Assembly (NCBI GenBank): GCA_020638575.1
Contig: JACKIH010000003.1
Location: 3,044,461 to 3,068,460 of the forward strand
Direction of reading: 5' to 3'
Length of the DNA stretch: 24,000 nt
From: Rhodospirillaceae bacterium
GTDB taxonomy: Bacteria > Pseudomonadota > Alphaproteobacteria > DSM-16000 > Inquilinaceae
In this document: positions 1-21,438 of the stretch, one piece after another
How positions within the stretch are numbered: position 1 is the first letter of the stretch
Layout of the letters: each line of letters starts with the position of its first letter
Made by a program: the position numbers and the translations under genes
The notes under the pieces: generated by a model
Seen by the model: only the letters and a program-made list of their open reading frames with translations
The model's database searches: none
What the model was told of the DNA's origin: nothing

Positions 1-1
1 T

Positions 2-2342: not shown

Positions 2343-2359
2343 GGTGCTTCCTACATGTT

Positions 2360-3141: not shown

Positions 3142-3370
3142 TCCGGCATGCTTCCCAAGAGCCCTCGCGTCAGTCGGCGTCAGAGGTTTTTTCGTGTCTT
3201 TGCCCAGACGAATGTGCCCCGTGTCCAAAACTTGTCCAATCTCCCAATTGATGATAGAAGTGCTTCCATAACAACGGCTTTTCTTGTGGCTGGGCGATTT
3301 GTTAAGCATATTAAGTAAATCCTAAGCTTGGTCTCCCACAATAAAGAAGAAACATGGGTAGGGGCGGATG

Positions 3371-3690
3371 CAAGATGTGCGCGGGGACCCCGCGCCATCT
3401 TGGCAAGGGGGGCTCAAAGGCCGCCCCCCGTTGCATCCCCCGCTTGTGCGGCGCGCGCCAAGGACACTGACCTAGGCGGTCAGGTCCGGCGGCACCCCAC
3501 GCAGCGTTTCGTCGCTGCACCACGACCAGGACCGGGAGATTTACCTCTCCCCCTGGACCGCCCCATGCACCAGCGTTTCGCCGCTGGATCACGACCAAAG
3601 GCGCTGTCCGCCCTTTGGATGCCCGGACCGGGAGATGGCGCTCTCCCGGACCATCGCGGAGCGTTCCGGCGCTCCACCACGGCTGAGCAG
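3371..3690. other. candidate oriT / relaxosome assembly region (multiple inverted and direct repeats)
   Basis: Lies directly upstream of mobC and the relaxase. Long IR at 3371-3402; GGGGGGC/GCCCCCC hairpin at 3407-3429; three related hairpins at 3501-3518, 3570-3587 and 3658-3675; exact direct repeat GGACCGGGAGAT at 3529-3540 and 3625-3636. Confidence 0.5.
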
Positions 3691-3725
3691 GCGTCGTCCA
3701 CCGCGCACGAGAAAGGAGGCATCCC

Positions 3726-4079
3726 GTGGCGCGCAGCGGTAGCGAAAACCGGCAACGGCAGATCGCCCTGAAGGCCCGCTTCAGCGAAGCGGAGGCCGAG
3801 CTCGTGCGCGCCCAGGCCGATGCCGCCGGTGTGCCCGTTGCCGGGCTCATTCGCTACGCCGTGCTGGAACAGACGCCGCTCAGGGCCACGCGCACGCCGC
3901 CTGCCGACTGGCAGGAAGTGGCGCGGCTTGTGGCGGCCCTCGGCACGCTGGCAACCGACCTGCGGCAGGCCGCTTCCCAGACCGATGACGAGACTGCGAT
4001 CGCAGCCGTCATCGCCGCGCAGCGCGACCTTACGGAGCTGCGGGTCGCCGTTCTGCGTGCTCTCGGGCGTGAGCCATAA
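3726..4079 (+). CDS. mobC: MobC-family relaxosome accessory protein
   Basis: GTG start 6 nt after GGAGG (3715-3719). Motif RFSEAEAELVRAQADAAGVPVAGLIRYAVL is typical of MobC. Sits immediately upstream of the relaxase. Confidence 0.8.
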   Translation: MARSGSENRQRQIALKARFSEAEAELVRAQADAAGVPVAGLIRYAVLEQTPLRATRTPPADWQEVARLVAALGTLATDLRQAASQTDDETAIAAVIAAQRDLTELRVAVLRALGREP

Positions 4080-4089
4080 GGGGGCGGCC

Positions 4090-5622: not shown

Positions 5623-5650
5623 CACCTGACAGCTTCGGGGATGAGGGCGG

Positions 5651-6979
5651 CTACTCCGTCTGCGCAGACTCCGGCAGCGTGAGGGCGGCCAGCCGCTGTC
5701 TGACGGCGCGGTTCACGCTGTCGTGGATCGCTTCCGGGAAGTCCGGCGGCAGCGCCTGTGCAATGGCATCCAGCGCGCTTTCGGCCCGGTCTGCGACCTC
5801 CGCTATGGCTTCGGCAACGAGCCGTTTGGGCAGCCGGGCTCTCTCGCCGGTCTGCATGAAATGCCGGGCCAGGATCTCCGCCATGCGGTAGTGGCGGTTG
5901 GCGCCGACGGACATCGCCAGCTTCATGCTCTTCTGTGTGATCTGCCCGTCATCAAGGCTCGGCTGAGCGGTCAGGATATCGTAGAGCGGGGTCAGCCGGT
6001 ATCCGCCGCCAGGGCTCAGGAACACGCTGAAATTCTTGGCATGGCCGTCGGTCGCGCCGATCAGCCAGAAGACAAGCTGCGCCTTGAGGAATGTCTTCTG
6101 GTCATCCGCCGGCCGGTCGCTGCCCTTGAGCAGGTCCAGGATATCGACCATGCCCGGCCCGCCATCCGCCTGGTATTTCAGGCTGGGGGGGACGGACAGG
6201 GCCTGGCAGCAATCCTCCTGCGGCAGGCGCAGGAGCCGCCCGTCCTTCGTCCAGCGCCGATCAAAGCGTTCGACAACGAGCGCCTTCGTCTCCCCGAACT
6301 GCGCCATTTGCGCTGCGCCCACCGGCAGGCCGAAGGCTTCCGCCAGCTTGAGGCAGTAGAATTCGTTCTCGACACTGTCCGAGAGATCGATCCCGTTCGG
6401 CAGGCGGCCGATCTGTTTCTTCAATATGTGTGTGGTCGGCGTCGTGCCGTGCGGCTTGTGCCAGCGCCCCTCATGCCAGAGCAGCGCGGTCTTTTCCTGT
6501 GCACCCGCGACCGATATCCGGAAATCATCGTCCCGGCTCAGACCCAGGGGAGCCTTGACCAGGCTGAGCAGCAGCGCCTCGATCTCCTGCTCACCAATGG
6601 CAGTGCCTTTGATCCCGCCGGAAGGATCGGGACCATCATCATCCCCGGCGATGAATTGCAGTGCGCCGACACAGTCCCGGCCGATGGCAGCGAGCAGGCT
6701 GTAGGCATCCGCGCCGTGCGCGCCGACCTTCTCCGCGACGCGGCGGCGCAACGCATCGGAATCGGGCAGCAGGTTCTCGAACACGGCTATGACAGGCGCC
6801 CCGTGATAGGGCTCTTCGCGCAGCGGCAGCGAGAGCGAGATCGGCAGGGTGTGGTCCCAGCCGAGCCAGCCCTTGTCGTATTGGAAGCTGACCGCGCCGC
6901 TTGGCGCCTTGGTCAGGTGTCCGACCATGCGGCTGTTCAGGAGCACGCGCAGCGGCGCGTATTGCGCCCGGCGCGGCAT
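5651..6979 (-). CDS. hipA: HipA-family Ser/Thr kinase toxin
   Basis: N-terminal HipA coupling region (LLNSRMVGHL...FQYDKGWL), catalytic loop GATDGHAKNFSVFL. ATGA overlap with the upstream HTH gene. Confidence 0.9.
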   Translation of the reverse strand: MPRRAQYAPLRVLLNSRMVGHLTKAPSGAVSFQYDKGWLGWDHTLPISLSLPLREEPYHGAPVIAVFENLLPDSDALRRRVAEKVGAHGADAYSLLAAIGRDCVGALQFIAGDDDGPDPSGGIKGTAIGEQEIEALLLSLVKAPLGLSRDDDFRISVAGAQEKTALLWHEGRWHKPHGTTPTTHILKKQIGRLPNGIDLSDSVENEFYCLKLAEAFGLPVGAAQMAQFGETKALVVERFDRRWTKDGRLLRLPQEDCCQALSVPPSLKYQADGGPGMVDILDLLKGSDRPADDQKTFLKAQLVFWLIGATDGHAKNFSVFLSPGGGYRLTPLYDILTAQPSLDDGQITQKSMKLAMSVGANRHYRMAEILARHFMQTGERARLPKRLVAEAIAEVADRAESALDAIAQALPPDFPEAIHDSVNRAVRQRLAALTLPESAQTE

Positions 6980-7227
6980 CAGAAGATCTCCTCAAGGGCG
7001 GTTTCGCCTGTGCTCCGGGACAGAACCCGGCATTCGAGGCCGAGTGCCGCGAGGACGGCCAGCAGGCTGTCGAGCCGCGCCGCCGGGTTGCCCGTCTCCA
7101 TCAGCGAGATGGTCTCCTGGCGCAGGCCCGCGCGTGCGCCCAGCTCGGTCTGTGTCCAGCCGCGCTGTTTGCGGGCGCGCCTGATGATGGCGCCGATCTG
7201 TTTCGGTGTGCGGGCAAGCTCAGTCAT
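6979..7227 (-). CDS. hipB: HipB-like XRE-family HTH antitoxin
   Basis: HTH segment IRRARKQRGWTQTELGARAGLRQETISLMETG. 1-nt overlap with the hipA start. Confidence 0.85.
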   Translation of the reverse strand: MTELARTPKQIGAIIRRARKQRGWTQTELGARAGLRQETISLMETGNPAARLDSLLAVLAALGLECRVLSRSTGETALEEIF

Positions 7228-8131: not shown

Positions 8132-9007
8132 CTATTCAGTCTGACTCAGCGAGCGGTCAAACTCTTCCCGATTGGCGATCACAAGCGGCGCCTCTTGAGG
8201 TTCGTTCAATATTTCAGCAACATCGAGACGAAGTCGTTTCTTGAAATAATATAGCATCGATCTTCGAACACTTATCTCGATAACATTATCGTTCATCTCG
8301 AAGTCATGCTCTATTATCTTTTGCTGCAACAAGGGGAGCGCCGGATTTGCTTTTAGAAAAACCTTAAATACCTCTTGCCATCGGCTGTCCTCGTGACCGC
8401 GTGCCTGCAGTTCGCCGCCAATTCGGCAGTCCAGGCAGCGCGAGACAAGAAAATCTTTGAACGTCCTATCGATATGGCAAAAGGCACGCACATGCCACCG
8501 AATGCCGTCACTTCCGAAGGCGTGTGGACTAATTTCTCGCCACGCCGGATTTGCGCGCCTAGGATTCATCGACTGATAGTAGATTTCCACAGCCCGGCCC
8601 AATCTAACTGCGGCGAGAAGCGTGCGAAGAAGCTCCGGATCAACGCGGCGGTGTGGGATCGGGAGGCAGTCCGCGTCGGGAAGCTTCGAAAGCCAAGTCT
8701 CGCTGACGAGTAATGTTCCGTCGGCTACAGATCGGAGCTGAGAAAGATACCGATCCGGATCGGGTTTCAGGAAATGCGGCCTAAAGGCGGGGGCGGCGAA
8801 ATAGCGCTTTCCACTCTTATCGTAAGCCATGTTCCCTGGCGCCAATTCTTGATACAGGCGGAGGTCTTTTGAGGCCTGCGGCACCGAAACGCCGAAGTAG
8901 GTGCGGATGTCCGACCTGTTGATACCGCCTTCCCAGAATAACCGGAATTCGATGAACTCAAGCCGTTGCTCCACACCCCAGCGCAGGTCCGGCGTGCGCT
9001 CCTCCAT
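8132..9007 (-). CDS. BrxR/CapW-family transcriptional regulator (wHTH + WYL + C-terminal dimerisation region)
   Basis: N-terminus RLEFIEFRLFWEGGINRSDIRTYFGVSVPQASKDLRLYQ (BrxR-type wHTH). WYL-domain core YYQSMN...REISPHAFGSDGIRWHVRAFCH. Divergent from a defence operon. Confidence 0.85.
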   Translation of the reverse strand: MEERTPDLRWGVEQRLEFIEFRLFWEGGINRSDIRTYFGVSVPQASKDLRLYQELAPGNMAYDKSGKRYFAAPAFRPHFLKPDPDRYLSQLRSVADGTLLVSETWLSKLPDADCLPIPHRRVDPELLRTLLAAVRLGRAVEIYYQSMNPRRANPAWREISPHAFGSDGIRWHVRAFCHIDRTFKDFLVSRCLDCRIGGELQARGHEDSRWQEVFKVFLKANPALPLLQQKIIEHDFEMNDNVIEISVRRSMLYYFKKRLRLDVAEILNEPQEAPLVIANREEFDRSLSQTE

Positions 9008-9121: not shown

Positions 9122-9364
9122 ATGCCCAAGAACGATCGCTACGTCGTCAAGCATGGCTCCGACTGGGCCGTAAAGAAGGGTGGTGTTGAGCGCCCCCAGA
9201 GCGTGCACGGGACGCAGGCCGAAGCCGAACGCACGGCCAAGGAGACCGTCAGAGGTCTTGGTGGAGGCGAAGTCCGCATTCAGGGCCGCGACGGTAGGTG
9301 GCGCGACTCCGATACGGTGGCGCCGGGCAACGACCCGTGTCCGCCGCGGGATAAGAAACACTAG
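9122..9364 (+). CDS. DUF2188-family small protein
   Basis: ATG at 9122 5 nt after GGAGG (9112-9116). Sequence YVVKHGSDWAVKKGG...HGTQAEAERTAKE...EVRIQGRDGRWRDSDTVAPGNDPCPPRD fits the DUF2188 pattern. Confidence 0.7.
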   Translation: MPKNDRYVVKHGSDWAVKKGGVERPQSVHGTQAEAERTAKETVRGLGGGEVRIQGRDGRWRDSDTVAPGNDPCPPRDKKH

Positions 9365-9397
9365 CGGAGGGCCAGCCTCCGCTGCACGGAGAAGGTA

Positions 9398-11257
9398 ATG
9401 TGGCCGGACAACGAGACAGCGCAGGATTTCCTTAATTTCTCCGGGGTCGCAGATACGGTCGCGGAGATCATCATTCAGGCAGACGGCCGACCCATCTCGA
9501 TCGGCATGTCCGGTGCGTGGGGCGTTGGCAAGTCGTCCATGATCAGGCTTGTTCGCGGCGCGTTTGACGGGCGTGCGAAGGGCCGCGCCGGCGATTTCAT
9601 CTTCGTCGAGTTCAATGCCTGGCTTTATCAGGGTTATGACGACGCGCGCGCTGCACTGCTGGAAGTTATTGCCACCGAATTGGCCGATGAAGCGGAACGG
9701 CGCAAAACCGGTATCGACAAGGCCAGAGAGCTGCTCGGTAGGGTGAACTGGTTGCGGGCGGCCAAATTGGCAGCCGGATCGGCGATGGCGCTCGCTCTCG
9801 GTCTCCCGCCAGTCGGGCTTGCGGGTGATGTGTATCAGATCGGCAGCAGAGTTCTGGCGGGACAGGCCGATCAACAGACAGTGGGGGATGCACAGGAGGC
9901 TGTTCAGGAGATCGGTAGCGAGGCGGCTGGCTTGCTTAAGCCCAAGACCGCGCTGACCCCGCCCAGAGAAATACATGCAATCCGGGAATGCTTCGAACAA
10001 ACCCTCTCTGAGATGAACGTGAAGCTGGTCGTCCTGATTGATGACCTCGACCGTTGCTTGCCGCCGACGACAATCTCAACGCTCGAAGCCATTCGCCTTT
10101 TCCTCTTCCTTAAGAACACCGCCTTCGTCATCGCCGCCGATGATGCGATGATTAAGCATGCGGTGCGTAGCCATTTCGACGGCGTCGACGACAAGCTGGT
10201 CACCAACTACTTTGACAAACTCATTCAGGTGCCCATTCGCGTGCCACCACTGGGCACACAGGAAGTGCGGGCATATATGATGCTGTTGTTTGTCGAGAAC
10301 AGCGCCCTTGAGGAAGCTGCCAAGGAAGTCATCCGCAGCAAGACGTGCGCCCAGTTAGCGCAGACCTGGCGCGGGCAGCGGGTCGACCGGGCTTTCATGC
10401 AATCGGCCCATCAGGGCCTGCCGCCCGAGCTGATTTCCCGGTTCGATACGGCGGAACGGTTGGCCCCACTCATGACAACGGCTTCGCAGATTGCCGGCAA
10501 TCCCCGGCTTATCAAGCGGTTTCTCAATGCGCTCTCGATACGAATGGCCATTTCAACTGCTCATGGCGTCGGTGTCGACGAAGCGGTCCTCGCCAAGATG
10601 CTGTTGTTCGAACGGTGCGCTCCGCCTTCGGCGTATGAAGCGCTGACTCAGGCAGTCAACACGGACGACGAAGGAAAGCCGCGAATACTTGGTCCCTGGG
10701 AAGACGCCGCACTTGGCGGTGCCGAACTGGACCTTGATGAGACCTGGGACGACGCGTTCATCCGCGAATGGCTGACAGTTCCGCCGCGCCTTGCCGATAT
10801 CGACCTTCGCGGGGTCTTGTATGTCAGCCGCGAACACGCGCCACTGATCACGCCCGAGGATCGCCTATCCTCCGAAGGGGCGGAAGTCCTGTCTGCGATC
10901 CTGGAACATCCGGATATGGCGGCAGCGATGCATGAGCGTTTGACTCGTCTGCCGCGGCCCGAGGCGACCATTGTCATGGATCGCCTGCTGGAACGTGCCC
11001 GCCAGATACAAGAGTGGGGAACTCCGCCGATCCTCGACGCCTGTATCGCCGTTTGCGCCGCCGATCCAACGCAGGGCTCGCGGCTCGCCGCCTTCCTGCG
11101 CGAGCGCCCCGCCAGCCAGATCAAGCCTGGAATCGTGCCAAAGATCGGCGACCAACCTTGGGCAAAGGACGTGTTGGGCGTCTGGAACGCGTCCAATGTA
11201 GCGGCGCCCGCAAAAGCGGCCATAACACGGGAGCTTAAGAAGCATGGGAACGTCTAA
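9398..11257 (+). CDS. qatA: KAP-family P-loop NTPase, QatA-like
   Basis: Walker A GMSGAWGVGKSS, FVEFNAWLYQGYDD, Walker B VVLIDDLDRCLPP. RBS GGAGAAGG before the ATG. Position and size (619 aa) fit QatA. Confidence 0.85.
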   Translation: MWPDNETAQDFLNFSGVADTVAEIIIQADGRPISIGMSGAWGVGKSSMIRLVRGAFDGRAKGRAGDFIFVEFNAWLYQGYDDARAALLEVIATELADEAERRKTGIDKARELLGRVNWLRAAKLAAGSAMALALGLPPVGLAGDVYQIGSRVLAGQADQQTVGDAQEAVQEIGSEAAGLLKPKTALTPPREIHAIRECFEQTLSEMNVKLVVLIDDLDRCLPPTTISTLEAIRLFLFLKNTAFVIAADDAMIKHAVRSHFDGVDDKLVTNYFDKLIQVPIRVPPLGTQEVRAYMMLLFVENSALEEAAKEVIRSKTCAQLAQTWRGQRVDRAFMQSAHQGLPPELISRFDTAERLAPLMTTASQIAGNPRLIKRFLNALSIRMAISTAHGVGVDEAVLAKMLLFERCAPPSAYEALTQAVNTDDEGKPRILGPWEDAALGGAELDLDETWDDAFIREWLTVPPRLADIDLRGVLYVSREHAPLITPEDRLSSEGAEVLSAILEHPDMAAAMHERLTRLPRPEATIVMDRLLERARQIQEWGTPPILDACIAVCAADPTQGSRLAAFLRERPASQIKPGIVPKIGDQPWAKDVLGVWNASNVAAPAKAAITRELKKHGNV

Positions 11258-12116
11258 GTCCGGTACAGGGCCAGGGCCAGGCGTTCCTCTTGTGCCGCCC
11301 TGGGTACCCGATCCAGCTCCGCCTGCACCTCCTCCGGGGGACGACGGTTCAGACAATTCCGGCAACAACGATTCCGGCGACCAAGACGAGCAGGCTCAGC
11401 CGGATTCAGTTCCACCGGCTTCTGCACCCGCGCCCCAGGCACCGCATGCGAGGTTCGGAGGTGCGCGCGCAAATCTGGGCAACTTTGCCCGCACCGGCTC
11501 GCCGGACGATATGCGACGCGGTCTGGGTCACTACGTTCACAGAGGCTATGGCGGCGCGCGATATGCTGCACAGCGAATGGGGGGAACGGCACGAACTGCC
11601 GGTACTCTCTACGGCGCACTGTCCTCTGCGGCGGCAGGACAGGCGGCCGGGCCGGGCAGCCCGTTTGATCCGGCTCTCTTAGCTGGGCGCTCCGCCGATG
11701 AGGTCATGGACGCCTTGGTAGAGGCTGTCCGTCCCGTCGATGGCACGCAGGATGCAGAAGCAGGCCGTGGCGCAATTCGCGATGCTCTTTCCGAGTTGCT
11801 CAACCGGTTCCCTGATGCCGATCTGTTGAGTCTCTCGGAGGAGCAGCGCCTATTCGCAATCGAGCGCTATCTGGCCCTTGATGTTTATGGGCGTTTTGCG
11901 CTCGACCTCGGCAAGACTGTGCAGGAGAAGGCGCCCAGCGCCACGGCTGCTCTATCACGTCTGAAAGAGATCAAGGACTACATCAAGGAAACGGTTTCGG
12001 CGCAATTCAGAGAGCTCAAAAAATCCGGGGAGTCACCAGGTGCGCGGCGCGTATCCGAAATGGCGAATCAAGCCCTGCGTGACACGTTTGCGGTCTTCGA
12101 GGGGTACGCCCAATGA
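11244..12116 (+). CDS. qatB: QatB-like protein (no known enzymatic domain; disordered P/G/D-rich N-terminal third)
   Basis: Sits between the KAP NTPase and the QueC-like gene. 14-nt overlap with qatA and ATGA overlap with qatC. Begins MGTSKSGTGPGPG. Confidence 0.7.
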   Translation: MGTSKSGTGPGPGVPLVPPWVPDPAPPAPPPGDDGSDNSGNNDSGDQDEQAQPDSVPPASAPAPQAPHARFGGARANLGNFARTGSPDDMRRGLGHYVHRGYGGARYAAQRMGGTARTAGTLYGALSSAAAGQAAGPGSPFDPALLAGRSADEVMDALVEAVRPVDGTQDAEAGRGAIRDALSELLNRFPDADLLSLSEEQRLFAIERYLALDVYGRFALDLGKTVQEKAPSATAALSRLKEIKDYIKETVSAQFRELKKSGESPGARRVSEMANQALRDTFAVFEGYAQ

Positions 12117-13393
12117 GAATTGTCTGTGCACCGGAGGATCAAGGATTTCAGGCAGGCCGGACCGCCGACCTCGGTGTTGTTCTCTATGGTCACACCAACG
12201 ATCCCCAGTCCGCATCTGTTGGTGCGGCGGTACGTGACATCATCCAGCGCCGCAAGCTGAAGCCGGCGGCACGTGCCTGGGACCTTTTGACCATAGCCTT
12301 ATCTGTCATTGCTGCCGACACCGGTGCGCGCCGTAGCGATAGCCCCGACGGTTGGACCCGTCAGCTCAATCTCGACATCACAGTCGGCGACGCCGCATTC
12401 TGGACGTCCCAAAGCGAATTGCTGGTTCGCCAGCTACACTTCCTGACGACCGATCTCTGGAATCTGTCGTTCTCCGGGGGCGGCATTCAGCCCGTCCCCG
12501 AAAAGCCGACTGCCGAGCCTGATCAGGACAGTGTTGTCCTCTTGTCGGGCGGTCTCGACAGCCTTGTCGGCACGATAGATCTCGTGACAGCACACAACAA
12601 GAAGCCTTACGCAGTCAGTCAGGTATCGCAGGGAGATAAGAAGACACAATGCTTTTTCGCTTCAAAGATCGGGGGCGGATTGGGCCATCTCCAGCTTAAT
12701 CACAACGCGGACTGTCCTGGCGAGAACGAACGCTCCCAGCGGGCAAGATCGATTATCTTTTTAAGCTACGGTGTCCTATTAGCAACTTCCCTGGCGCGCT
12801 ACTATGAAGGCGGTGATGTTACTCTCTATGTATGTGAAAACGGTTTTATCTCGATAAATCCTCCGCTTACCGATGCGCGCCTTGGCAGTCTGAGTACGAG
12901 AACGACTCACCCTGTCTTTCTTGGCCTCTTTCAGCAGCTTCTTGATGCCGCGGGTCTGCGCGTGACGATCAAGAACCCCTATCAGTTCTGTACAAAGGGC
13001 GAGATGCTTAAAGGCTGTGTGAGCCAGCAGTTCCTGTTCAAGTATGCGCATGTGAGTACAAGCTGCGGACGATATGCTCGGAACGGCTATAAGCATTGCG
13101 GACGGTGCCTTCCTTGTCTTATTCGCCGTGCCGCATTTGACGCCTGGGGCGTTGCCGACCAGACAGAGTATGTCTTCGCCGATTTAGCGCGTGACGATAA
13201 AGATCACGCCCAATATGACGATGTCCGCTCAGCGGCTATGGCCGTAGCTGCAGCGAAAACCGAAGGACTGGCGGCATGGGCCGGACCGTCACTCAGTACT
13301 GCGCTCTTGGGCGACATCACCCCCTATAGAGGTGTTGTTGGACGCGGCCTCGACGAACTAGCTTCCTTCCTTCGGAAGGCAGGCGTGAATTGA
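12113..13393 (+). CDS. qatC: QueC-like PP-loop ATPase, QatC-like
   Basis: PP-loop VVLLSGGLDSLVGT in the C-terminal half. Cys cluster CGRYARNGYKHCGRCLPCLIRR, like the QueC zinc site. Extra roughly 140-aa N-terminal region. Confidence 0.85.
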   Translation: MRIVCAPEDQGFQAGRTADLGVVLYGHTNDPQSASVGAAVRDIIQRRKLKPAARAWDLLTIALSVIAADTGARRSDSPDGWTRQLNLDITVGDAAFWTSQSELLVRQLHFLTTDLWNLSFSGGGIQPVPEKPTAEPDQDSVVLLSGGLDSLVGTIDLVTAHNKKPYAVSQVSQGDKKTQCFFASKIGGGLGHLQLNHNADCPGENERSQRARSIIFLSYGVLLATSLARYYEGGDVTLYVCENGFISINPPLTDARLGSLSTRTTHPVFLGLFQQLLDAAGLRVTIKNPYQFCTKGEMLKGCVSQQFLFKYAHVSTSCGRYARNGYKHCGRCLPCLIRRAAFDAWGVADQTEYVFADLARDDKDHAQYDDVRSAAMAVAAAKTEGLAAWAGPSLSTALLGDITPYRGVVGRGLDELASFLRKAGVN

Positions 13394-14157
13394 TCGATTT
13401 CCACTGTCACATTGATCTCTATCCAGACCCACAACACGTTGCCCGCGCATGTGATGCTCGCGGTCTTCACGTGCTCTCGGTGACGACAACACCCAGCGCC
13501 TGGCACGGCACTTCAGCTCTTGCGCATGGCAGGATCCGTACAGCCCTTGGCCTCCATCCGCAGCTTGCACACGAACGGCATGGGGAACTTGCTCTGTTCG
13601 AGGAGCTGCTGCCGCAGGCGCGCTATGTCGGAGAGATCGGGCTTGATGGCGCACCAGAGTTCCGCGCCAACTGGCAGGTCCAGGAGACGGTCTTTCGATG
13701 CATCCTGGATGTCTGTGCCAAAGCTGGCGGGCGGATCATGTCGATCCACAGCCGGCGTGCGAGCAAGGCTGTACTTGACTGCCTTGCGACGCAGCCGGAT
13801 TCGGGCGTTCCGGTCCTGCACTGGTTTTCCGGTACGACGCGCGATCTCGACAGGGCCATTGAATTCGGGTGCTGGTTCAGTGTTGGTCCGGCCATGCTGA
13901 GGGGAGAGAGAGGGAGAGCATTGGCTGCGCGAATGCCCCGCGAACGTGTCCTCACAGAATCGGACGGGCCATTTGCACAGATCGAAGGGCGATCAGCCTG
14001 GCCCTGGGAAGTCGACAGAGCCGTAGCCGGACTGGCAGCCTTGTGGGGAATCGACGAGCGCAAGGCACAGGTGGTGCTGGACGACAATCTTCGGCACTTG
14101 GCCCAATGGTCCCGAGCAGGGCGTGCCGAGCCTCCAGATTCCGGGATGCGAACGTGA
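13390..14157 (+). CDS. qatD: TatD-family metal-dependent hydrolase/DNase, QatD-like
   Basis: TTG start overlapping the qatC stop (TTGA). Motifs MIDFHCHIDL, YVGEIGLDG, MSIHSRRA, VLHWFSG, LTESDGPF. Confidence 0.85.
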   Translation: MIDFHCHIDLYPDPQHVARACDARGLHVLSVTTTPSAWHGTSALAHGRIRTALGLHPQLAHERHGELALFEELLPQARYVGEIGLDGAPEFRANWQVQETVFRCILDVCAKAGGRIMSIHSRRASKAVLDCLATQPDSGVPVLHWFSGTTRDLDRAIEFGCWFSVGPAMLRGERGRALAARMPRERVLTESDGPFAQIEGRSAWPWEVDRAVAGLAALWGIDERKAQVVLDDNLRHLAQWSRAGRAEPPDSGMRT

Positions 14158-15728
14158 CGGGCTCTGTCGTCTATCTGTTTGTCGACACCAACCTTCTCAT
14201 CCAGTGCCGTCCTCTCGAGCAACTGGACTGGTCGCCATGGAGCAACTTTGAAGAGGTGCGGCTGATTGTATCTAATCCGGTCCTGCGAGAGATGGATTAC
14301 CGCAAGAATAAGGGCCAGGACCGCCTCGGTAGTCGCGCTCGGGCAGCATCAGCCATGTTTCGCAAGATGTTGCCGGACGGGCAGAAGACTATTCGGGAGA
14401 GCCGACCGCGCGTCCTTCTCTCCATCGAGCCTCAGCACCGATATAGCAGGGACCTCGAAGACCGGCTGAACTACGATGAGCGCGACGACCAGCTCATCGG
14501 CACTATCCACGAATTCGCAAGGGGCAATCCGGGTAGCGATGTGCGGCTGCTGACCCATGATACGACCCCGCTCTACTCGGCCCGAGCCCATGGGTTGGCA
14601 GCGGCGGTGATACCCGACGACTGGCTGCTGCCGCCCGAAAAAAGTGAAACCGAGAAAGAGCTGTCGGCGCTGAAGGCGGAGAATGCCCGGTTGAAGAAAG
14701 CCGAGCCTTCCTTCGCGGTACGATGCGCAAACACCGAAGGGACCGAAATCACGCGCTATGAAGGTTCGTATACGAGGTACGAGCCGCTGACAGACGACGA
14801 CGTAGATGGTCTGATGGCGCGCCTGAAGGAGTGCTTCCCTCCTGAGACCGACTTCGGGCCAAGAGAGCCTGCGGAACGCGATGCACCGCCGGTGGGCGGG
14901 TTGCGCGTTTCTGGCATGAAGCAGATCTTCACACCGGCCACGGACGAAGAAATCGCAGAATATCTTGGCGAATCATACCCGAACTGGCTGACAAAGTGCG
15001 AAGAAATCCTGCGAAACCACCATTGGACGCTTCAAAAAGAAGAAACTGTACTGGCCTTTGTATTCCTGGCTGAGAATAACGGCACTCGCCCAGCGACCGA
15101 TGCTCTGATCACAATCGAGGCTCAGAGCCAATTCGAGGTTAGGCCTCCTCCGTCAAAAAGGCGCGATGAGCAACAGAGCGACGATGATGACGGGCCGCGC
15201 ATGCCCGAGTTGCCGCGTCCGCCCGCAGTCCCTCATGGCCGCTGGCGATCGTCAGTCGGCAGCCAGTCAACTGGCCTGTACACAACCATGCTCCAGCGCT
15301 CCCTCCGCGGCATGCCGGGTTTTGCCGGCTTTGGCAGTAGCGTATTTGACGAGAGAGTCCTGCAACCTCCGATTATTCCCCCACTACATGATCCAAATGC
15401 ATTCTACTACAGTTCGGGCCGGTCGGGCGTGCCTCAAGAATCCTTCGCCCTGGAATGTGATCAGTGGCGCCACGAAGACGGGGAAGAGCCGTTTGTCGGT
15501 GAGATCTGCGTGCCTGCCGGTCAGCAAGAGGCCAAGGGCGCACTGATCTGTCGTATCCAAGCAAGCAACCTCTCCAGAGCCGTGTCCCTCAAGATTCCGG
15601 TGCACATAGCCATCGAGCATGTCCGAGCCTTTGACGATGCCGAGAAAATGGTCGAGGCCCTGACAATGCGACCGAGTTTTCGGATCAAGCCATCTTCAGG
15701 ACAATCCGGCACAGGCGGATCTGCCTGA
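14154..15728 (+). CDS. PIN-like nuclease domain protein with coiled-coil linker and unrecognised roughly 320-aa C-terminal region
   Basis: GTG at 14154 overlaps the qatD stop (GTGA). N-terminus VVYLFVDTNLLIQ, then VLREMD, ERDDQLIG and LLTHDTT give the four acidic PIN positions. The track start at 13869 lies inside qatD. Confidence 0.65.
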   Translation: MTGSVVYLFVDTNLLIQCRPLEQLDWSPWSNFEEVRLIVSNPVLREMDYRKNKGQDRLGSRARAASAMFRKMLPDGQKTIRESRPRVLLSIEPQHRYSRDLEDRLNYDERDDQLIGTIHEFARGNPGSDVRLLTHDTTPLYSARAHGLAAAVIPDDWLLPPEKSETEKELSALKAENARLKKAEPSFAVRCANTEGTEITRYEGSYTRYEPLTDDDVDGLMARLKECFPPETDFGPREPAERDAPPVGGLRVSGMKQIFTPATDEEIAEYLGESYPNWLTKCEEILRNHHWTLQKEETVLAFVFLAENNGTRPATDALITIEAQSQFEVRPPPSKRRDEQQSDDDDGPRMPELPRPPAVPHGRWRSSVGSQSTGLYTTMLQRSLRGMPGFAGFGSSVFDERVLQPPIIPPLHDPNAFYYSSGRSGVPQESFALECDQWRHEDGEEPFVGEICVPAGQQEAKGALICRIQASNLSRAVSLKIPVHIAIEHVRAFDDAEKMVEALTMRPSFRIKPSSGQSGTGGSA

Positions 15729-15912
15729 TATTCCTGCTATTGAGCCATGGTGACACCCGGTGCGGGGGTGCGTCCGGCACAAGAGCCGGACCGGGCTCTC
15801 GTGAACCGAACCCCGGCTCTTCCGGGTTTCGGCCATACGGCTTCGATCCCTTGCACATACCAGTGGACAGCGCCATTCCGGCGCTGAACTTCCTATTGAA
15901 CATAAGGGGTTA

Positions 15913-15931
15913 GGGAAGGCGCCGCCTTCCC
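15913..15931 (+). terminator. GC-rich palindromic hairpin downstream of the qat-PIN operon
   Basis: GGGAAGGCG-c-CGCCTTCCC, followed by TCCCTTGG. 185 nt after the PIN gene stop. Confidence 0.35.
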
Positions 15932-16070
15932 TCCCTTGGCGCGCCTTCTGCCGGACCGGCAGGGCCGCGTCCGGCGCACGACCGCTTCGCTGGTCATGCC
16001 CCGGTCCGCAACCCGGCTGGCCCCACAAGCCGCACCGACCCACACCTATCCGTTCCTCGCCGGAAGGGCA

Positions 16071-16088
16071 GGGTTGCATGTGCAACCC
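16071..16088. promoter_or_regulatory. palindromic candidate operator upstream of the DUF2958 gene
   Basis: GGGTTGCA-TG-TGCAACCC (16 of 18 positions symmetric), 32 nt upstream of the ATG at 16120. Confidence 0.35.
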
Positions 16089-16119
16089 ACTTCCAATGGA
16101 TTTACGAAAGGAACGGACC

Positions 16120-16479
16120 ATGAAGCTACTTACAGATTCTCAATACAAAGCCCTGCTCCGCAACGGAGAACTGCGGAAACACTTCGAAAAAGAGGGGAAG
16201 GTGGAGCCTGATTTTTTTCCCGTCGTCAAACTCTTCACGCCCGATGCGTCCTGCACGTGGCTGCTGACGGAGCTTGACCCCGACGATCACGACATTGCCT
16301 TCGGGCTGTGCGATCTCGGTTTCGGCTGTCCGGAACTCGGCAGTGTTCGGCTCTCGGAATTGAAGGCCGTTCGCGGAAAGCTGGGTCTCCCGGTAGAGCG
16401 CGATCTTCATTTCTGCCCCGGCAAGACCATCGGCGACTACGCCGATGAGGCCCGCGCCGCCGGTCACATCAAGGCATAG
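16120..16479 (+). CDS. DUF2958-family protein (conjugative-element backbone)
   Basis: ATG at 16120 after AAAGGAA. Sequence LFTPDASCTWLLTELDPDDHDIAFGLCDLGFGCPELGSVRLSEL matches the DUF2958 pattern. Confidence 0.8.
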   Translation: MKLLTDSQYKALLRNGELRKHFEKEGKVEPDFFPVVKLFTPDASCTWLLTELDPDDHDIAFGLCDLGFGCPELGSVRLSELKAVRGKLGLPVERDLHFCPGKTIGDYADEARAAGHIKA

Positions 16480-16488
16480 GGGGCGGCC

Positions 16489-17154
16489 ATGGATAGACAG
16501 GACCTGAAAAACACAGGTGAGGGCGGGCAGCTCGGATTCGACATGCTGCTCTCCACCGCAATGGCCGAAAACGAGGCGCGGCGCTTCGAGCGCGAAACCG
16601 CACACCTGCCGGATACACTCGAAGAGGCGGTACCGTTCTTTCGCGGTTTGATCGAGCGGCACCACGCCGCGATGATGGCGGCTGACGTGGATGAGACCAT
16701 GCGCCTTCGGAACGAAGCCGACTTGCTGGCCCAGCGCGTGAACGGGGGCGACCGGGCCATTCTGGCCGACGAGAATGCGCCGGGCCGTGTATTGGAACGC
16801 GAAACCGCTGCCACGCCGGGAGATGTGCCGCTGTGGGGGCAGACCGGCAATTTCGAGATCCCGGTCTGCGGCGCGCGGGTGCGGATCGAGCTTGAAGGCG
16901 TTTTCGGTATTGGCACCGGGTTCGGATACTGGCCCGGATTTTCGGCCCATGCCGTCGATCCCGCTGCGCCCTTTGTCAGCCCAACCGGCTACCGTAGCTT
17001 CCTCGGTCAGTACGCGGGTCCCGTGCCGGGGCTGACCCCGGACCAGTTCGCGGCCCGGTCCGTCGAAAACTACGTCGCGGACGCCCTCAAAGGATGTCTG
17101 GTCGCGATCAAAAGGGAGTATCACCCGAACCGCGGGGAGGCGGGGGAACCATGA
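16489..17154 (+). CDS. hypothetical protein (221 aa), co-transcribed with the DUF2958 gene
   Basis: RBS GGGGG 9 nt after the DUF2958 stop. ATGA overlap with the following gene. No motif recognised. Confidence 0.6.
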   Translation: MDRQDLKNTGEGGQLGFDMLLSTAMAENEARRFERETAHLPDTLEEAVPFFRGLIERHHAAMMAADVDETMRLRNEADLLAQRVNGGDRAILADENAPGRVLERETAATPGDVPLWGQTGNFEIPVCGARVRIELEGVFGIGTGFGYWPGFSAHAVDPAAPFVSPTGYRSFLGQYAGPVPGLTPDQFAARSVENYVADALKGCLVAIKREYHPNRGEAGEP

Positions 17155-17471
17155 ACGTCCTATTTGTCTGCACTGCCAACAAGCTGCGCAGCCCGACCGC
17201 CGAAGCGGTCTTCTCGGGGCGGGAGGGAGTTGCCGTTCGCTCTGCTGGGCTCGATCCGGCAGCGCCGCGTCGCCTCACCGAAGAGCTTGTCGCCTGGGCT
17301 GACCGCATCTATGCCATGGAAGACCGCCACCGCCAGAAGATCCGGAAGAAGTTCCGCAAGGCGCTCGGGGCAAAGCCCATGGTGACGCTGCATATCCCCG
17401 ACGAGTACGAGTTCATGCAGCCCGAGCTGATCTCGTTGCTCACGGAGCGGCTGCCGGATCTTGGCGGTTAG
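17151..17471 (+). CDS. short LMW phosphotyrosine phosphatase / ArsC-like protein (106 aa)
   Basis: P-loop VLFVCTANKLRSPTAEAV (C-X5-R-S). Shorter than canonical LMW-PTPs. Confidence 0.7.
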   Translation: MNVLFVCTANKLRSPTAEAVFSGREGVAVRSAGLDPAAPRRLTEELVAWADRIYAMEDRHRQKIRKKFRKALGAKPMVTLHIPDEYEFMQPELISLLTERLPDLGG

Positions 17472-17673
17472 GCGTTTCCGAAAAGCAGTGCTGTAGTGCC
17501 TGCGGCGGCTGCGGCGTTAGGAGCGCTCTATGCCATCGCGCCGCGCGCCACGCCGCCAATAGCCGCTAATAACGTAGCCTCAGTATTGTGTTAGAGTGGC
17601 GGGTCCGCGTTGGATTTTCGCGTGGCTCAGGGTGGCGGGCCCCGCAGGAACTCCCGCTAATGGCACGCATAGA

Positions 17674-17702
17674 TTGCAATTGGTGTGGCGAGATGGAATA
17701 AT
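17674..17702 (+). promoter_or_regulatory. candidate sigma70-type promoter of gajAB
   Basis: TTGCAA (17674-17679), 17-nt spacer, AATAAT (17697-17702). It encloses the GTG at 17685 used by the longest ORF. Confidence 0.3.
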
Positions 17703-19622
17703 TGCGCCTGCTATTTGTGCGGGGAGAGGTGCATTGCGCATAAGTCATTTAAGAATAAAGAATTTCCGGGGATCAAGGAAGCGACGATTTTTCTTCCGAA
17801 GCATGCAGTATTAATCGGAGATAACAATACCGGTAAGACCACGCTGCTTGAAGCAATTGACCTTGTTCTCGGTCCTGATCGCCTCAACCGGATGCCGCCG
17901 GTAGATGAGCACGATTTCTTTCAGGGGCGCTATCTGCCTGTTCAGGTCGGCGCCGAAGGCGTGGCCGATGATGAAGATCCGGGGGCAGACAGCGAAAAGG
18001 ATGCCGTAGCAGCAGAACATGCGCCCGCTGAAGGTGAGCACAGCGAAGAAGCCCCAACCATTCGCATTGACGTGACAATCGTCGATCTAAGCGGCGAACA
18101 GCGGGCGCACTTCGGAGATGTAGTCGAGTTCTGGGATAATAATGACCGACAACTCTATGAGAAACCAGATCCAAAGGGCGTCGATCCTGCGCATATCTCT
18201 GAAGCCATACGTGTAACTTTTCTCGGCTGGTATGAACTTGGGGAAGACGACTTCCAGGGGAAGACTTTTTTTACGCGAAGTCTGACGGAAGGTGATACAG
18301 GCGAGCCGTTCAGAAGGACCGATAAGCAGCGATGTGGCTTCCTGTACCTCCGCTCTCTTCGGACCGGCTCACGCGCTCTAAGCCTCGAAAGGGGCAGTCT
18401 GCTCGACATCATTCTGCGGCTAAAAGAGCTTCGCCCGCAGATGTGGGAGGCAACGCTCTCTCATCTGGCTGAGTATGACGTTGCCAGCGATCCGGCACTC
18501 GGTATTACGGGTGTCCTGGAAAGCATCAATGCGTCTCTTAAGAAATATGTGCCAAAGGAATGGGGTATTCACCCCCATCTCAAAGTCTCCAACCTCACCC
18601 AAGATCACCTGCGCAAGGTCATAACCGCGTTTATCGCAACGGGTGACGGCGATCATGCCGCCCCGTTTTACCGGCAGGGGACAGGAACGCTGAATATGCT
18701 TGTCCTGGCGATGCTTTCCCAGATCGCCGAGGGCAAGCAGAACGTCATCTTTGCCATGGAAGAGCCTGAGACTGCGATACCGCCCTATGCGCAGAAGCGC
18801 ATCGTCCATGAGGTTCGCAAGCTTTCAGCCCAGACAATCTTCACATCACATTCCCCGTATGTGCTCGAAGAGTTCCAGACAGAAGAAACTGTCGTGCTTC
18901 GCCGCGAAACACACGGCGCTCTGAGGCAAGCCGATATCAAGCTGCCGGAAAGCCTGAAGCTGAAGCGATACCGGCAGCAGTTTCGCACCCGTTTCTGTGA
19001 AGGCCTTCTTGCGCGCAGAATCCTAATTGCTGAGGGCGCTACCGAAGCACAATCCTTTCCAGTGGTCTGTCGTCGGCTCTCCGAGATTAACTCAACTAAG
19101 TATGCTTCCCTTGAAGCTCTGGGCATATGCATCATCGATGCTGGAAGTGAGACGCAGATAGCCGATCTCGCCAAACTATATTCAGGTCTTGGTAAGCGAG
19201 TGTTTGGCCTGTGTGACAAGCAGGATGTGCAAGCGGAAGCGGCCATTGCCGCCGAAGTTGAGGCCTTGTTCATGCATGGGGAGCACGGCTTTGAGGATCT
19301 GATACTCAAGAACACGACCGAAGACGCCCTCAAGCGTTATGCTGGGGCCGTTGCATGGCCGCCACACCTTCAGCATAAGCACCCGAACCCCAGAATAGAC
19401 ATCCAAGCGGCCATCGCGGATTTGTTCGAGTGGGGGAAAGCGAACTGGATTGCCGCGGACTTCCTGGCGCAATGCACTGAAGCCGAAATGCCTGAATGGC
19501 TTCGGGAAAAGGCCTCAGAACTGAAAACGCTCTGTGACCCACCATCGGCGGCGGAAAACAGCGCTGACGGCAGTGAAGGCGCAGAGCCGGAGCCAGCTGC
19601 AGGGGACGCGGATGGCGATTAA
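17685..19622 (+). CDS. gajA: GajA (OLD-family ABC ATPase + TOPRIM nuclease). The longest intact ORF is given; the ancestral start appears to be TTG 17734 in another frame (see findings)
   Basis: Walker A GDNNTGKTT, FAMEEPETAIPP, TSHSPYVLE. TOPRIM motifs RRILIAEGATE and ICIIDAGSE. Followed by a UvrD-like gene with an 11-nt overlap. Confidence 0.8.
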   Translation: MARWNNCACYLCGERCIAHKSFKNKEFPGIKEATIFLPKHAVLIGDNNTGKTTLLEAIDLVLGPDRLNRMPPVDEHDFFQGRYLPVQVGAEGVADDEDPGADSEKDAVAAEHAPAEGEHSEEAPTIRIDVTIVDLSGEQRAHFGDVVEFWDNNDRQLYEKPDPKGVDPAHISEAIRVTFLGWYELGEDDFQGKTFFTRSLTEGDTGEPFRRTDKQRCGFLYLRSLRTGSRALSLERGSLLDIILRLKELRPQMWEATLSHLAEYDVASDPALGITGVLESINASLKKYVPKEWGIHPHLKVSNLTQDHLRKVITAFIATGDGDHAAPFYRQGTGTLNMLVLAMLSQIAEGKQNVIFAMEEPETAIPPYAQKRIVHEVRKLSAQTIFTSHSPYVLEEFQTEETVVLRRETHGALRQADIKLPESLKLKRYRQQFRTRFCEGLLARRILIAEGATEAQSFPVVCRRLSEINSTKYASLEALGICIIDAGSETQIADLAKLYSGLGKRVFGLCDKQDVQAEAAIAAEVEALFMHGEHGFEDLILKNTTEDALKRYAGAVAWPPHLQHKHPNPRIDIQAAIADLFEWGKANWIAADFLAQCTEAEMPEWLREKASELKTLCDPPSAAENSADGSEGAEPEPAAGDADGD

Positions 19623-21438
19623 GCTGACTACGAAGCAACGTGACGTCCTCACTGCGGATGGCCACCTTTTGGTTACTGGAGGACCCGGCTCCGGTAAGAC
19701 TACAATTTCGATAATGAAAGCAGCGCAAGCGGTAGACAAAGACCTATCCCGTGGGCAGCGCGTGCTTTTCCTAAGCTTTACTCGCGCTACTGTTTCACGC
19801 GTTGTGGAAGCCATTCAATATGAACATCAATTGCCGCCCGAACAACGCAAGCGGATCGAGGTCGAAACCTATCACTCTTTCTTTTGGCGCATCATAAGAG
19901 CTCACGGTTACCTGCTAGGTTTGCCGCGTCGCCTCACACTTCTTCCTCCACCCGCCGAGGCCATCGCCCTTTCCTCAATAAGGAATGAACTGGGCGCTGA
20001 TTCAAAGCTCAGCGCCGCGGCGGTCGCCGAGAAACAGCGACGCGTAACCGCTGAACGTGAGCGTCTGGCAATGGAAGAGGGCCGTGTGTGCTTCGACCTA
20101 TTCGCCCGTTACACAGGTGCTATCCTCCATGGTAGCGAACGCATCCGCCAACTCGTCTCCAACATGGTCCCCGTGATCGTCCTGGACGAGTTTCAGGACA
20201 CGAATGCTGACCAATGGAATGTGGTTCAAGCCTTGGGCCGGCATTCTCGGTTGATCGCGCTGGCTGATCCGGAGCAGCGCATCTACGATTTCCAGGGTGC
20301 CGACCCTGAGCGCCTCAATCACTTCCGTGAAGGGTTCGTCCCGACGGAGATTGATCTTAGCGACGACAACCACCGAAGCGCCGGAACTGAGATAGGGCTG
20401 TTCGGGAACGAGATACTGCGCGGGAGATTTACGCAGGAGAAGTATGTTGGCGTATGTCGTTTTGGCTATCCGCCGAACGGTGACCAAGCTTTTACGGAAC
20501 TTGTAATGCGTGTCTATAAGGCACGCAGTCGTCTAGCAAAGAGCAGCAAGAAGGATTGGTCTTTGGCAATCCTTGTTCCAACGAAAAAGATGACGCGTCT
20601 TGTTGCGGACAAGCTTCGGGAACCGCCAGCCGGAATGACGGCCGTACCGCATTCCGCTGTTGTAGAGCTCGAAGGCGCAATTCTCGGGGCAGAACTTATT
20701 GCGTTCCTTTTGCAACCATCTTCAGGCGGTCGGGATTTTGGGCGGTTCCTCGATTTGCTGTGCAACTATTTTCAGGGTAGAGGCGGCGACGAACCGGGTC
20801 AGGGCGACCTTAACACAGCCCAGAAATTCCGCGATGCCTATGCCGACTACGTGCAGCGTCAGACGGAAGGTAAAGCGATGCGAGGCAGTAGCCTTCTTGT
20901 CAGCACGCTTGCCACTTATCAGCGGGCTCGAGCCCTAGGATTGACAGGTGATCCCGACGTTGATTGGCGATCCATGCGGTCTCTCCTCGAGAATGGGGAA
21001 TGTTCGCGGCTTCAGGCGCTCGCCCACGAGGTAAGGAATCTGCGTTTACTGGATCGGGGCACCCAGCTTCGTCAGGGGTTGGCGGATGATTGGCGAACGA
21101 ATGGGTCTTACTCGAACGCGCTATCAATTGTGAAACATGCTTTTGTTCAAGAACATTTTGCGACAATCCAAAAGCCGGAAACCGGCGTTATTGTTATGAA
21201 CATGCATAAAGCCAAAGGAAAGCAGTTTGACGAAGTGATAATCTTTGAGGGCTGGCCACGGCTTGTTAAATGGAAGATTGTCGCGAATCTGGATCGTATT
21301 GTCCGGTCCAACGACCTGGACTATGATAATGATCAATCGCGACAAAATCTTCGGGTGAGCGTGACGCGCGGGAAATCTCGCACGACGATCCTTACGCCAA
21401 AGAATAATCCCTGCGTTCTCTTACTCAATCGCGCGTGA
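19612..21438 (+). CDS. gajB: GajB (UvrD/Rep-like SF1 helicase)
   Basis: Internal ATG at 19612 gives MAIKLTTKQRDVL. Motifs VTGGPGSGKTT, VIVLDEFQDTN, MNMHKAKGKQFDEVIIF, LRVSVTRGKSRTTIL. Confidence 0.85.
   Translation: MAIKLTTKQRDVLTADGHLLVTGGPGSGKTTISIMKAAQAVDKDLSRGQRVLFLSFTRATVSRVVEAIQYEHQLPPEQRKRIEVETYHSFFWRIIRAHGYLLGLPRRLTLLPPPAEAIALSSIRNELGADSKLSAAAVAEKQRRVTAERERLAMEEGRVCFDLFARYTGAILHGSERIRQLVSNMVPVIVLDEFQDTNADQWNVVQALGRHSRLIALADPEQRIYDFQGADPERLNHFREGFVPTEIDLSDDNHRSAGTEIGLFGNEILRGRFTQEKYVGVCRFGYPPNGDQAFTELVMRVYKARSRLAKSSKKDWSLAILVPTKKMTRLVADKLREPPAGMTAVPHSAVVELEGAILGAELIAFLLQPSSGGRDFGRFLDLLCNYFQGRGGDEPGQGDLNTAQKFRDAYADYVQRQTEGKAMRGSSLLVSTLATYQRARALGLTGDPDVDWRSMRSLLENGECSRLQALAHEVRNLRLLDRGTQLRQGLADDWRTNGSYSNALSIVKHAFVQEHFATIQKPETGVIVMNMHKAKGKQFDEVIIFEGWPRLVKWKIVANLDRIVRSNDLDYDNDQSRQNLRVSVTRGKSRTTILTPKNNPCVLLLNRA

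Follow-up and report, generated by a model that had tools for sequence, protein, structure and literature searches.

PIN-domain nucleases of the PIN_4 type, among them PhoH2, SMG6 and Dis3, act on single-stranded RNA and depend on Mg or Mn for catalysis. Many toxin–antitoxin systems are themselves defence systems, and the anticodon nucleases PrrC and RloC, which join an ABC-ATPase to a HEPN-like nuclease, are embedded in type I restriction-modification (R-M) loci; PrrC backs up EcoprrI in the prr locus. Thousands of comparable defence candidates are now predicted. DS-3 is a PIN-type RNase without a cognate antitoxin that is presumably auto-inhibited until infection, and the two structural papers on the Qat system describe four genes only. 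Here we consider a gene that lies directly behind a Qat operon and encodes a PIN domain followed by a C-terminal module of 340 residues. It occupies positions 14154–15728 on the + strand of a window of 24,000 nucleotides from Rhodospirillaceae bacterium (assembly GCA_020638575.1, contig JACKIH010000003.1, positions 3,044,461 to 3,068,460), whose numbering is used throughout. On balance we favour the view that this PIN gene is an autonomous, horizontally mobile nuclease module consisting of one gene, not a component of Qat but a passenger on the qat transcript, and that its product is a candidate effector of abortive infection or defence.

The gene is complete. Its open frame of 524 codons runs from a GTG start to a TGA stop, is called as a gene on the source contig, and has a product identical to a 524-residue NCBI protein from a Rhodospirillaceae metagenome-assembled genome (P0001; 100% identity and coverage). 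The GTG at 14154 shares bases with the stop codon TGA of qatD, in the sequence GTGA, and a GGGA lies 7 nt upstream of it. Because of this overlap the PIN gene must be co-transcribed with qatD and is probably translationally coupled to it; a sequence scan found no promoter-like site upstream of the PIN gene. The first-pass annotation of this DNA had proposed just such a frame coupled to qatD, and the translation, the GTGA overlap, the database protein and the gene call on the source contig all bear it out. The same annotation had allowed that the real start might be an internal ATG. The first residues of the protein line up with Met1 of its homologues, P0001 has the same length, and the next in-frame ATG, M47, would cost the invariant D11, so that an internal start is not supported and the alignment backs the GTG at 14154.

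Residues 1–160 (14154–14633, +) form a PIN domain, as judged from Pfam, PHROG and structural matches and from the conservation of its acidic residues. The Pfam PIN_4 model (PF13638) matches residues 10–150 with an E-value of 4.4e-10 and 40.4 bits, against a gathering cut-off of 21.9, and the PHROG match is the PIN domain of the PhoH-like family. Four motifs had been put forward as the PIN acidic quartet (FVDTNLL, REMD, ERDDQLIG and THDTT), and each of them does hold an invariant acid: D11 (codon 14184–14186, +), E46 (14289–14291), D111 (14484–14486), which is followed by D112, and D136 (14559–14561). All five of these residues are invariant in an alignment of homologues (46/46), and the acidic residues of the PIN domain are kept, in the canonical D-E-D-D order, in 34–36 of 36 more divergent family members. 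A full-length AlphaFold2 model built on the 46-sequence alignment had a mean predicted local distance difference test score (pLDDT) of 82.5 and a predicted template modelling score (pTM) of 0.50, with the PIN domain at a pLDDT of about 90+. Whether the N-terminus is PIN-like at all was to be decided, according to the first-pass annotation, by a structure or HMM search. A Foldseek search with the model returned solved PIN domains, namely those of 3i8o, human SMG6 (2hww), AF0591, Nmd4 and Rrp44/Dis3, at a probability of 1.00 and with template modelling scores, normalised to the target, of 0.5–0.63; for the entries 3i8o, 2hww, 1o4w and 8rdd these scores were 0.54–0.63. The model and these matches agree in a Rossmann-like alpha/beta/alpha PIN fold. 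The four motifs thus hold the real catalytic residues of what looks like an active PIN nuclease, one that belongs with PIN_4 and not with VapC. By analogy, the domain is probably a metal-dependent endoribonuclease that resembles the PIN domains of PhoH2, SMG6 and Dis3 rather than VapC, and its substrate would then be single-stranded RNA and its metal Mg or Mn, as in these relatives.

The remainder of the protein had been described as an unrecognisable C-terminal half, and so it proved to the sequence libraries. The C-terminal 340 residues found no Pfam match, even at E ≤ 5 across 17 family members, nothing in NCBIfam, PADLOC or PHROGs, and nothing among PDB sequences by either phmmer or profile hmmsearch. 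This half is nevertheless conserved and confidently folded in the full-length model, and is not a mere spacer. It is reached through a linker (14634–14711, +) with a conserved helix at residues 165–182 and a WLLPPE...EP motif that is kept in distant plasmid homologues. A short coiled coil had been suggested here; the helix stands, as a conserved single helix in a model of the monomer, and any coiled-coil pairing is putative. There follows a small alpha/beta subdomain at residues 187–296 (14712–15041, +), modelled with a pLDDT of 85–95 and containing the invariant residues Y270, Y275, W278 and C282, for which Foldseek found no structural match in the PDB. Next comes an immunoglobulin (Ig)-like beta-sandwich at about residues 297–491 (15042–15626, +), recognised from the strands of the model, from Foldseek and from invariant columns that include the motifs N308-x-G310, P356-P357, D413-P-N415, C435-x-x-W-R-H440 and A470-x-N472. 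Its structural matches are of Ig-like or MG type, namely integrin, the MG domains of complement C3, PapD-like proteins and TTHA1873 (E-values from 4e-4 to 5e-3). A terminal helix at residues 493–505 closes the model.

Two hypervariable loops emerge from the sandwich region. The first, at residues 332–352 (15147–15209, +), lies inside the sandwich, is predicted to be disordered (pLDDT below 50 at 336–348) and is acidic, with a family median net charge of −7 and 39% aspartate or glutamate; its pairwise identity is 0.28, compared with 0.66 in its flanks. The second, at residues 370–410 (15261–15383, +), has a pLDDT below 50 at 370–408 and a pairwise identity of 0.22, and is mostly missing from the 450-residue plasmid homologues. 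The sandwich core, by comparison, has a pairwise identity of 0.63–0.66, much the same as the 0.67 of the PIN domain, and a deeper alignment gives the same pattern with hypervariable loops. What had been taken for an acidic and proline-rich spacer has two ingredients, the disordered acidic loop and the invariant P356-P357 that comes after it. Across the deep family the invariant C-terminal residues are Y270, Y275, W278, C282, N308, G310, P357, P360, C435, W438, R439, H440 and N472, several of which, on our reading of the secondary structure of the model, would lie at strand ends or turns. When the C-terminal half was modelled alone, from 17 sequences, the result was poor (pLDDT 57.4) and had no Foldseek match with an E-value below 0.001; this collapse of the sandwich could reflect the depth of the alignment, or the sandwich may genuinely need to be in contact with the PIN domain. 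We also considered a Cys/His metal site formed by C18, C282, C435 and H440. These residues are invariant in the 500-residue family and are lost in the distant plasmid homologues, and the site was dropped as unsupported.

The family is large, far beyond what chance would produce, and its architecture is fixed. A word-indexed search with the full protein found 345 homologues, the best 120 of them 50–64% identical and about 500–530 residues long, and an exhaustive HMMER search of 1.84 billion representatives with the C-terminal half alone found 873 clusters at 50% identity. Nearly all of these are about 500 residues in length and match at residues 185–500. Since the C-terminal matches nearly all share this layout, and PIN_4 was present in 35 of 36 sampled divergent members, the PIN domain and the C-terminal module can be regarded as a fixed combination. 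One apparent exception, a 745-residue protein (P0180), is a membrane-protein reading frame run into a PIN-less copy, and is probably an artefact of gene calling or assembly. A tblastn search of plasmids brought up ‘PIN domain-containing proteins’ of 450–460 residues from Acidovorax, Phyllobacterium, Rhizobium and Blastomonas that seemed to be similar in the PIN domain only. Profile–profile alignment overturned this: the four 450-residue plasmid proteins are full-length homologues (hhalign probability 100%, E-value 5e-47, 427 columns) and share the WLLPPE linker together with the N-x-G, P-x-P-P, C-x-x-[WF]-R-H and A-x-N-L motifs. A corresponding tblastn search of phage records found no encoded relatives. 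The spread of the family is patchy, over Alpha-, Beta- and Gammaproteobacteria and Gemmatimonadota at 40–64% identity, on chromosomal islands, integrative and conjugative elements (ICEs) and plasmids. A pattern scan, which catches close relatives only, recovered six of 185,579 species genomes. Literature searches turned up no paper on the family.

The first question raised by the position of the gene is its relation to Qat. The upstream operon that supplies the transcript consists of qatA (9398–11257), qatB (11244–12116), qatC (12113–13393) and the TatD-family gene qatD (13390–14157), all on the + strand, and is recognised by gene calls, by PADLOC (E-values of 3e-152, 3e-41, 2e-95 and 3e-94 for QatA to QatD, the last being 2.7e-94 before rounding) and, for QatD, by Pfam TatD_DNase. 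The overlapping start, the shared transcript and the lack of a promoter-like site ahead of the PIN gene would all suit a fifth component peculiar to Qat in this lineage, either a further effector nuclease or a sensor working with QatABCD, which is one of the roles that the first-pass annotation had offered. The homologues speak against it. We assembled 42 homologue loci from species genomes, metagenomes, exact-protein look-ups and plasmids; tblastn with QatA–D of the window found Qat genes at none of 39, and the annotation of the other three, the plasmid loci L040–L042, contains no Qat gene either, so that the count stands at 0/42. The converse also holds, for the three closest QatD homologues on long contigs (73–75% identity) belong to four-gene Qat operons that end at qatD and have no PIN gene downstream. 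The PIN protein itself has no PADLOC match at E ≤ 0.01, and so none to a Qat model. Its closest homologue, at 64% identity, is placed between Gabija-like and phosphoribosyltransferase (PRTase) and reverse transcriptase genes, and in two other genomes the same cassette follows hsdS.

The borders of the cassette can be seen in the DNA. Similarity of the window to the PIN loci L007, L014 and L001, at the DNA level and by tblastx, is confined to the PIN gene (14145–15712 against L007), and the flanks of the window gave no tblastx match at any of the loci, hence no conserved partner or synteny. Conservation in QatD of the window extends to about residue 240; the tail beyond it exceeds those of its relatives by 8 residues, and the DNA similarity of qatD to the Qat loci L044–L046 ends at or before 14106. 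Because the similarity of qatD ends by 14106 and that of the PIN gene starts at 14145, the join lies at about 14107–14144 (+), within the qatD frame and inside its extended tail, which as a whole (14107–14157) reads across the junction into the PIN cassette. The junction looks like a secondary fusion that gave rise to the translational coupling. There is no step in GC content between qatD and the PIN gene, and for want of such a break a recent insertion is neither supported nor refuted. Since the coupling is a local fusion, it would be wrong to take the PIN gene for an effector of Qat, and we regard a fifth Qat component as improbable. A separate observation concerns the closest Qat relative, L044 (1–10833), where a type I R-M system encloses the whole of qatABCD, with hsdM-hsdS on one side and hsdR on the other, another embedded defence system.

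Where the PIN gene occurs elsewhere, it keeps varied company. The upstream neighbour differs from locus to locus (qatD, hsdS, RepA, a deaminase, guaA or none), and no neighbouring gene is conserved across the loci of the family. Locus L007 holds OLD-TOPRIM and UvrD genes, an SMC-like ATPase with a metallophosphatase, a PRTase-CE gene, a reverse transcriptase and type IV secretion system (T4SS) genes, as well as an unrelated open reading frame (ORF) of 74 residues upstream that is seen in this locus only. In L005 the order is a SLFN/AlbA_2 gene, hsdM, hsdS, the PIN gene after a gap of 16 nt and, further on, PD-T4-7; in L023, hsdS is followed after 30 nt by the PIN gene and then by an ImmA/IrrE-DUF4411 pair. 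A 1457-residue HNH-NACHT protein is encoded downstream of the PIN gene in L029, and L013 contains a Dam-type methylase and DUF7690/7687 genes. The plasmid relatives adjoin a type I R subunit, a reverse transcriptase, insertion sequence elements, or DEAD/DEAH helicase and ABC-three-component genes. When 127 neighbouring ORFs of 15 loci were scanned together, they proved to encode type I R-M subunits, RmrA-like regulators, a MADS component and integrases, with housekeeping genes of the island borders mixed among them. This assessment of defence-island context was made by inspection and is qualitative. For the most part the family turns up in defence or mobile-element settings; occurrence mostly outside defence contexts is what the first-pass annotation would have taken as a refutation. 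Defence genes have been predicted with success from the embedding of unknown genes in operons already known for defence (10.1101/2024.01.29.577857). The PIN gene shows such embedding in its same-strand overlap with qatD and after hsdS in L005 and L023, while at most loci it stands alone; a PADLOC search gave no match of the family to the models from that study.

Two further features of these loci stand on their own. A 648-residue protein without a Pfam or PADLOC match is encoded 100 nt before the PIN gene in both L029 (7001–13146) and L027 (4955–8413). On the Blastomonas plasmid pBSY18_4 (L042, 1873–6329), the gene of a distant PIN relative overlaps the end of a gene for a 1028-residue DEAD/DEAH-ResIII helicase by 4 nt and adjoins ABC-three-component-system genes; the helicase and the PIN relative may constitute a two-gene variant of the family.

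The neighbourhoods also bear on a second explanation, that the gene is an addiction or fused toxin–antitoxin-like module, with a PIN toxin and a C-terminal antitoxin acting in cis, which stabilises ICEs, plasmids and islands rather than acting against phages. The family is often carried by plasmids or integrative elements, close to relaxases, T4SS genes and integrases; its neighbours include the toxin–antitoxin genes HipAB, ParE, VapBC, PemK and Fic (an integrase, Fic and HipAB in L014; ParE, FitA/VapC and PemK genes in L009–L011), and L020 has a plasmid RepA. A separate antitoxin gene is lacking, and PIN is the classical fold of the VapC toxins. Set against this, the protein is three to four times the size of VapC and belongs to PIN_4, not to a VapC-type Pfam PIN family, and the gene lies repeatedly in or beside genuine defence operons (Qat, type I R-M, Gabija-like, NACHT and PD-T4-7). 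We consider an addiction role a lesser possibility that deserves to be kept in mind, and one that overlaps with the reading we favour, because many toxin–antitoxin systems also act in defence.

A third explanation, a housekeeping or stress RNA-processing enzyme like PhoH2 or YacL that finds itself in a variable region by chance of location, appeals to the nearest PIN relatives (PhoH2-type, SMG6, Dis3 and Nmd4), which act in RNA turnover, to the strong conservation of the C-terminal core and to the housekeeping genes, guaB-guaA for instance, that flank some family loci. A patchy distribution and missing synteny make such an RNase unlikely: the gene is scattered over Alpha-, Beta- and Gammaproteobacteria and Gemmatimonadota without conserved order, close relatives came from only a handful of the species genomes scanned, and copies travel on plasmids and ICEs. 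In L001, moreover, the housekeeping genes sit upstream of the PIN gene. We regard this as very improbable indeed.

We therefore return to the autonomous defence module, which the first-pass annotation had named as its other option, an independent single-gene defence protein using the qat transcript. The Qat-free loci, the junction and the island contexts favour this reading. The analysis establishes an intact PIN_4 catalytic set, a conserved and fixed architecture, a gene that moves singly and apart from Qat, and its place in defence and mobile-element islands, whereas RNA as the substrate, a regulatory or sensor role of the C-terminal module and a function in defence are what we infer. As no antitoxin gene accompanies the PIN gene, its activity would have to be controlled in cis; the authors of DefensePredictor argued likewise for DS-3, an unrelated PIN system made of one protein. 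Nothing but the C-terminal module offers itself for such control or for substrate targeting, and it would most likely control or target the PIN nuclease. Without a trigger, the nuclease would be held inactive or off its substrate. Attack by a phage or a mobile element would lead to the cutting of RNA, and growth or phage replication would be stopped. In the present genome the cassette would have joined the 3′ end of qatABCD and would be expressed from the qat transcript via GTGA translational coupling. The conservation of the core argues for a conserved ligand, which might come from the cell, as an RNA or a protein, or be the PIN domain itself. That the hypervariable loops carry specificity, or that the acidic loop mimics nucleic acid, is speculation.

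A bolder version of this scheme can be imagined, in which the protein is a new single-protein immune sensor-effector. A conserved Ig-like scaffold would display the loops 332–352 and 370–410 for recognition of phage or mobile-element molecules, or the acidic loop would mimic nucleic acid for auto-inhibition, and recognition would free the PIN RNase. The cassette would spread into the 3′ ends or interiors of defence operons such as Qat and type I R-M, borrowing their promoters, possibly as a back-up in the manner of PrrC for EcoprrI. We hold this to be doubtful in its full form. Several points also weigh against the favoured reading as such. The core of the sandwich matches the catalytic domain in its degree of conservation; a phage sensor that evolves fast would seldom look like this, and a conserved ligand or substrate in the cell would explain it better. 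Neither an experimental report on the family in the literature nor a PADLOC model for it was found. Several loci show only toxin–antitoxin, mobile-element or housekeeping neighbours, and with these an addiction role or another role in mobile-element conflict is equally compatible. The enrichment in islands was judged by inspection and not by a statistic. The geometry between the domains is uncertain at a pTM of 0.50 and the C-terminal half alone gives a poor model, while the preference for RNA over DNA as the substrate derives only from knowledge of the related PIN_4 enzymes.

The surroundings of the gene form a defence block. The window contains, in order, a relaxase, HipA/HipB, a BrxR-type WYL regulator, Qat, the PIN gene, three small genes and Gabija. 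A MobA/VirD2-type relaxase (3820–5622, +) and a HipA/HipB pair (5651–6979 and 6979–7227, both −) lie just upstream of the block, and because they adjoin it the island probably belongs to a mobilisable or integrative element; searches of the entire window for tRNAs and Rfam families gave no match. The BrxR-type regulator (8132–9007, −), with WHD_BrxR, WYL and BrxR_CTD domains, is divergent from an 80-residue DUF2188 gene (9122–9364, +) ahead of qatA, and its control may extend over all of the + strand block (9122–21438). Downstream of the PIN gene, GajA and GajB begin after about 2 kb. The three small genes in between, all on the + strand, encode a DUF2958 protein (16120–16479), a 221-residue protein without a family (16489–17154) and a 106-residue protein with a weak match to LMWPc, the low-molecular-weight phosphatase family (17151–17471). 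The longest ORF of this gap, of 332 residues at 16126–17124 (−), is convergent on the PIN gene and was considered as a partner. It was rejected, having no homologue in 5.8 billion proteins and no gene call on the source contig; in DNA of such high GC content it is probably a spurious antisense frame.

Within the 390 nt that follow the PIN stop codon there are GC-rich hairpins at 15778–15803 and 15912–15932, including a perfect 10+10 palindrome (AGGGAAGGCG/CGCCTTCCCT), without a T-run. A terminator scan did not flag either hairpin; they are possible transcript ends or protein-binding sites. At the far end of the window, positions 1–3000 have a GC content of 0.50–0.53, compared with 0.64–0.68 at 3001–7000, and encode an ankyrin-repeat protein (1614–2342, −) and several ORFs without a family match. 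This part may be a separate acquired segment.

If the PIN family is a defence system, it would be a widespread single-gene addition to the catalogue, with 873 clusters that PADLOC, NCBIfam and, beyond the PIN domain, Pfam do not recognise. The C-terminal module is a conserved domain without family assignment, which makes it a candidate both for a Pfam entry of its own and for a new mode of PIN-nuclease control. The qatD–PIN arrangement is a concrete case of defence cassettes nesting within the operons of other defence systems, and calls for caution in research on Qat. The family is a good candidate for both a defence function and a new domain, and nothing about it contradicts current understanding.

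How, then, does the protein compare with what is known? It is a member of the PIN_4 superfamily in its hidden Markov model match, its acidic set and its fold. Qat components, VapBC toxins, PhoH2 proteins and the PADLOC families each have a defining feature that it lacks, and it belongs to none of them. With the PIN_4 nucleases (PhoH2-type, SMG6, Nmd4 and Dis3) it shares the D-E-D-D set, the fold and the fusion of PIN to a larger substrate-handling module, but it has no PhoH ATPase, TRAM, RNB or 14-3-3-like partner domain, and its C-terminal module matches no library. In particular, there is no Pfam match beyond residue 150 that would correspond to the PhoH P-loop ATPase, and the alpha/beta subdomain and beta-sandwich are predicted in its place. 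VapC of the type II VapBC systems shares the PIN fold, the catalytic acids and the occurrence on mobile elements and islands; it differs in its length of about 130–150 residues against 524 here, in the conserved upstream antitoxin gene, of which no adjacent counterpart was found among the loci inspected, and in its VapC-type PIN family, the best Pfam match here being PIN_4. QatABCD is physically coupled to the PIN gene through qatD in one genome, is not found with it elsewhere, and provides no model that matches it.

The closest parallels in concept are the DefensePredictor systems DS-3 and DS-5 and the PADLOC systems HEC-03B and HEC-09, which are likewise PIN or NYN defence candidates that are single-protein or embedded. 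The PIN of DS-3, however, is divided over the two termini of the protein, and DS-5 and HEC-03 each require a partner protein; DS-3 and DS-5 were set apart by their descriptions, and a search of PADLOC v2, including the PIN-containing HEC-03 and HEC-09 models, gave no match to our protein. Literature searches for a PIN domain with this C-terminal architecture yielded only other PIN systems, namely Menshen NsnC, HEC-03/09 and DS-3/5. Fusions of nuclease effectors to control modules are already known; what is new here is the undescribed C-terminal domain, a putative control module. PrrC and RloC resemble the PIN gene in that an RNase gene lies in or right after a type I R-M locus (as in L005 and L023) or another defence operon (as here), and this placement suggests a back-up role tied to the host operon. 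They differ in fold, the present nuclease being a PIN; most members of its family lie away from R-M genes, and any interaction with the host system is putative. The PIN protein would work most like the antitoxin-less single-protein PIN or HEPN effectors.

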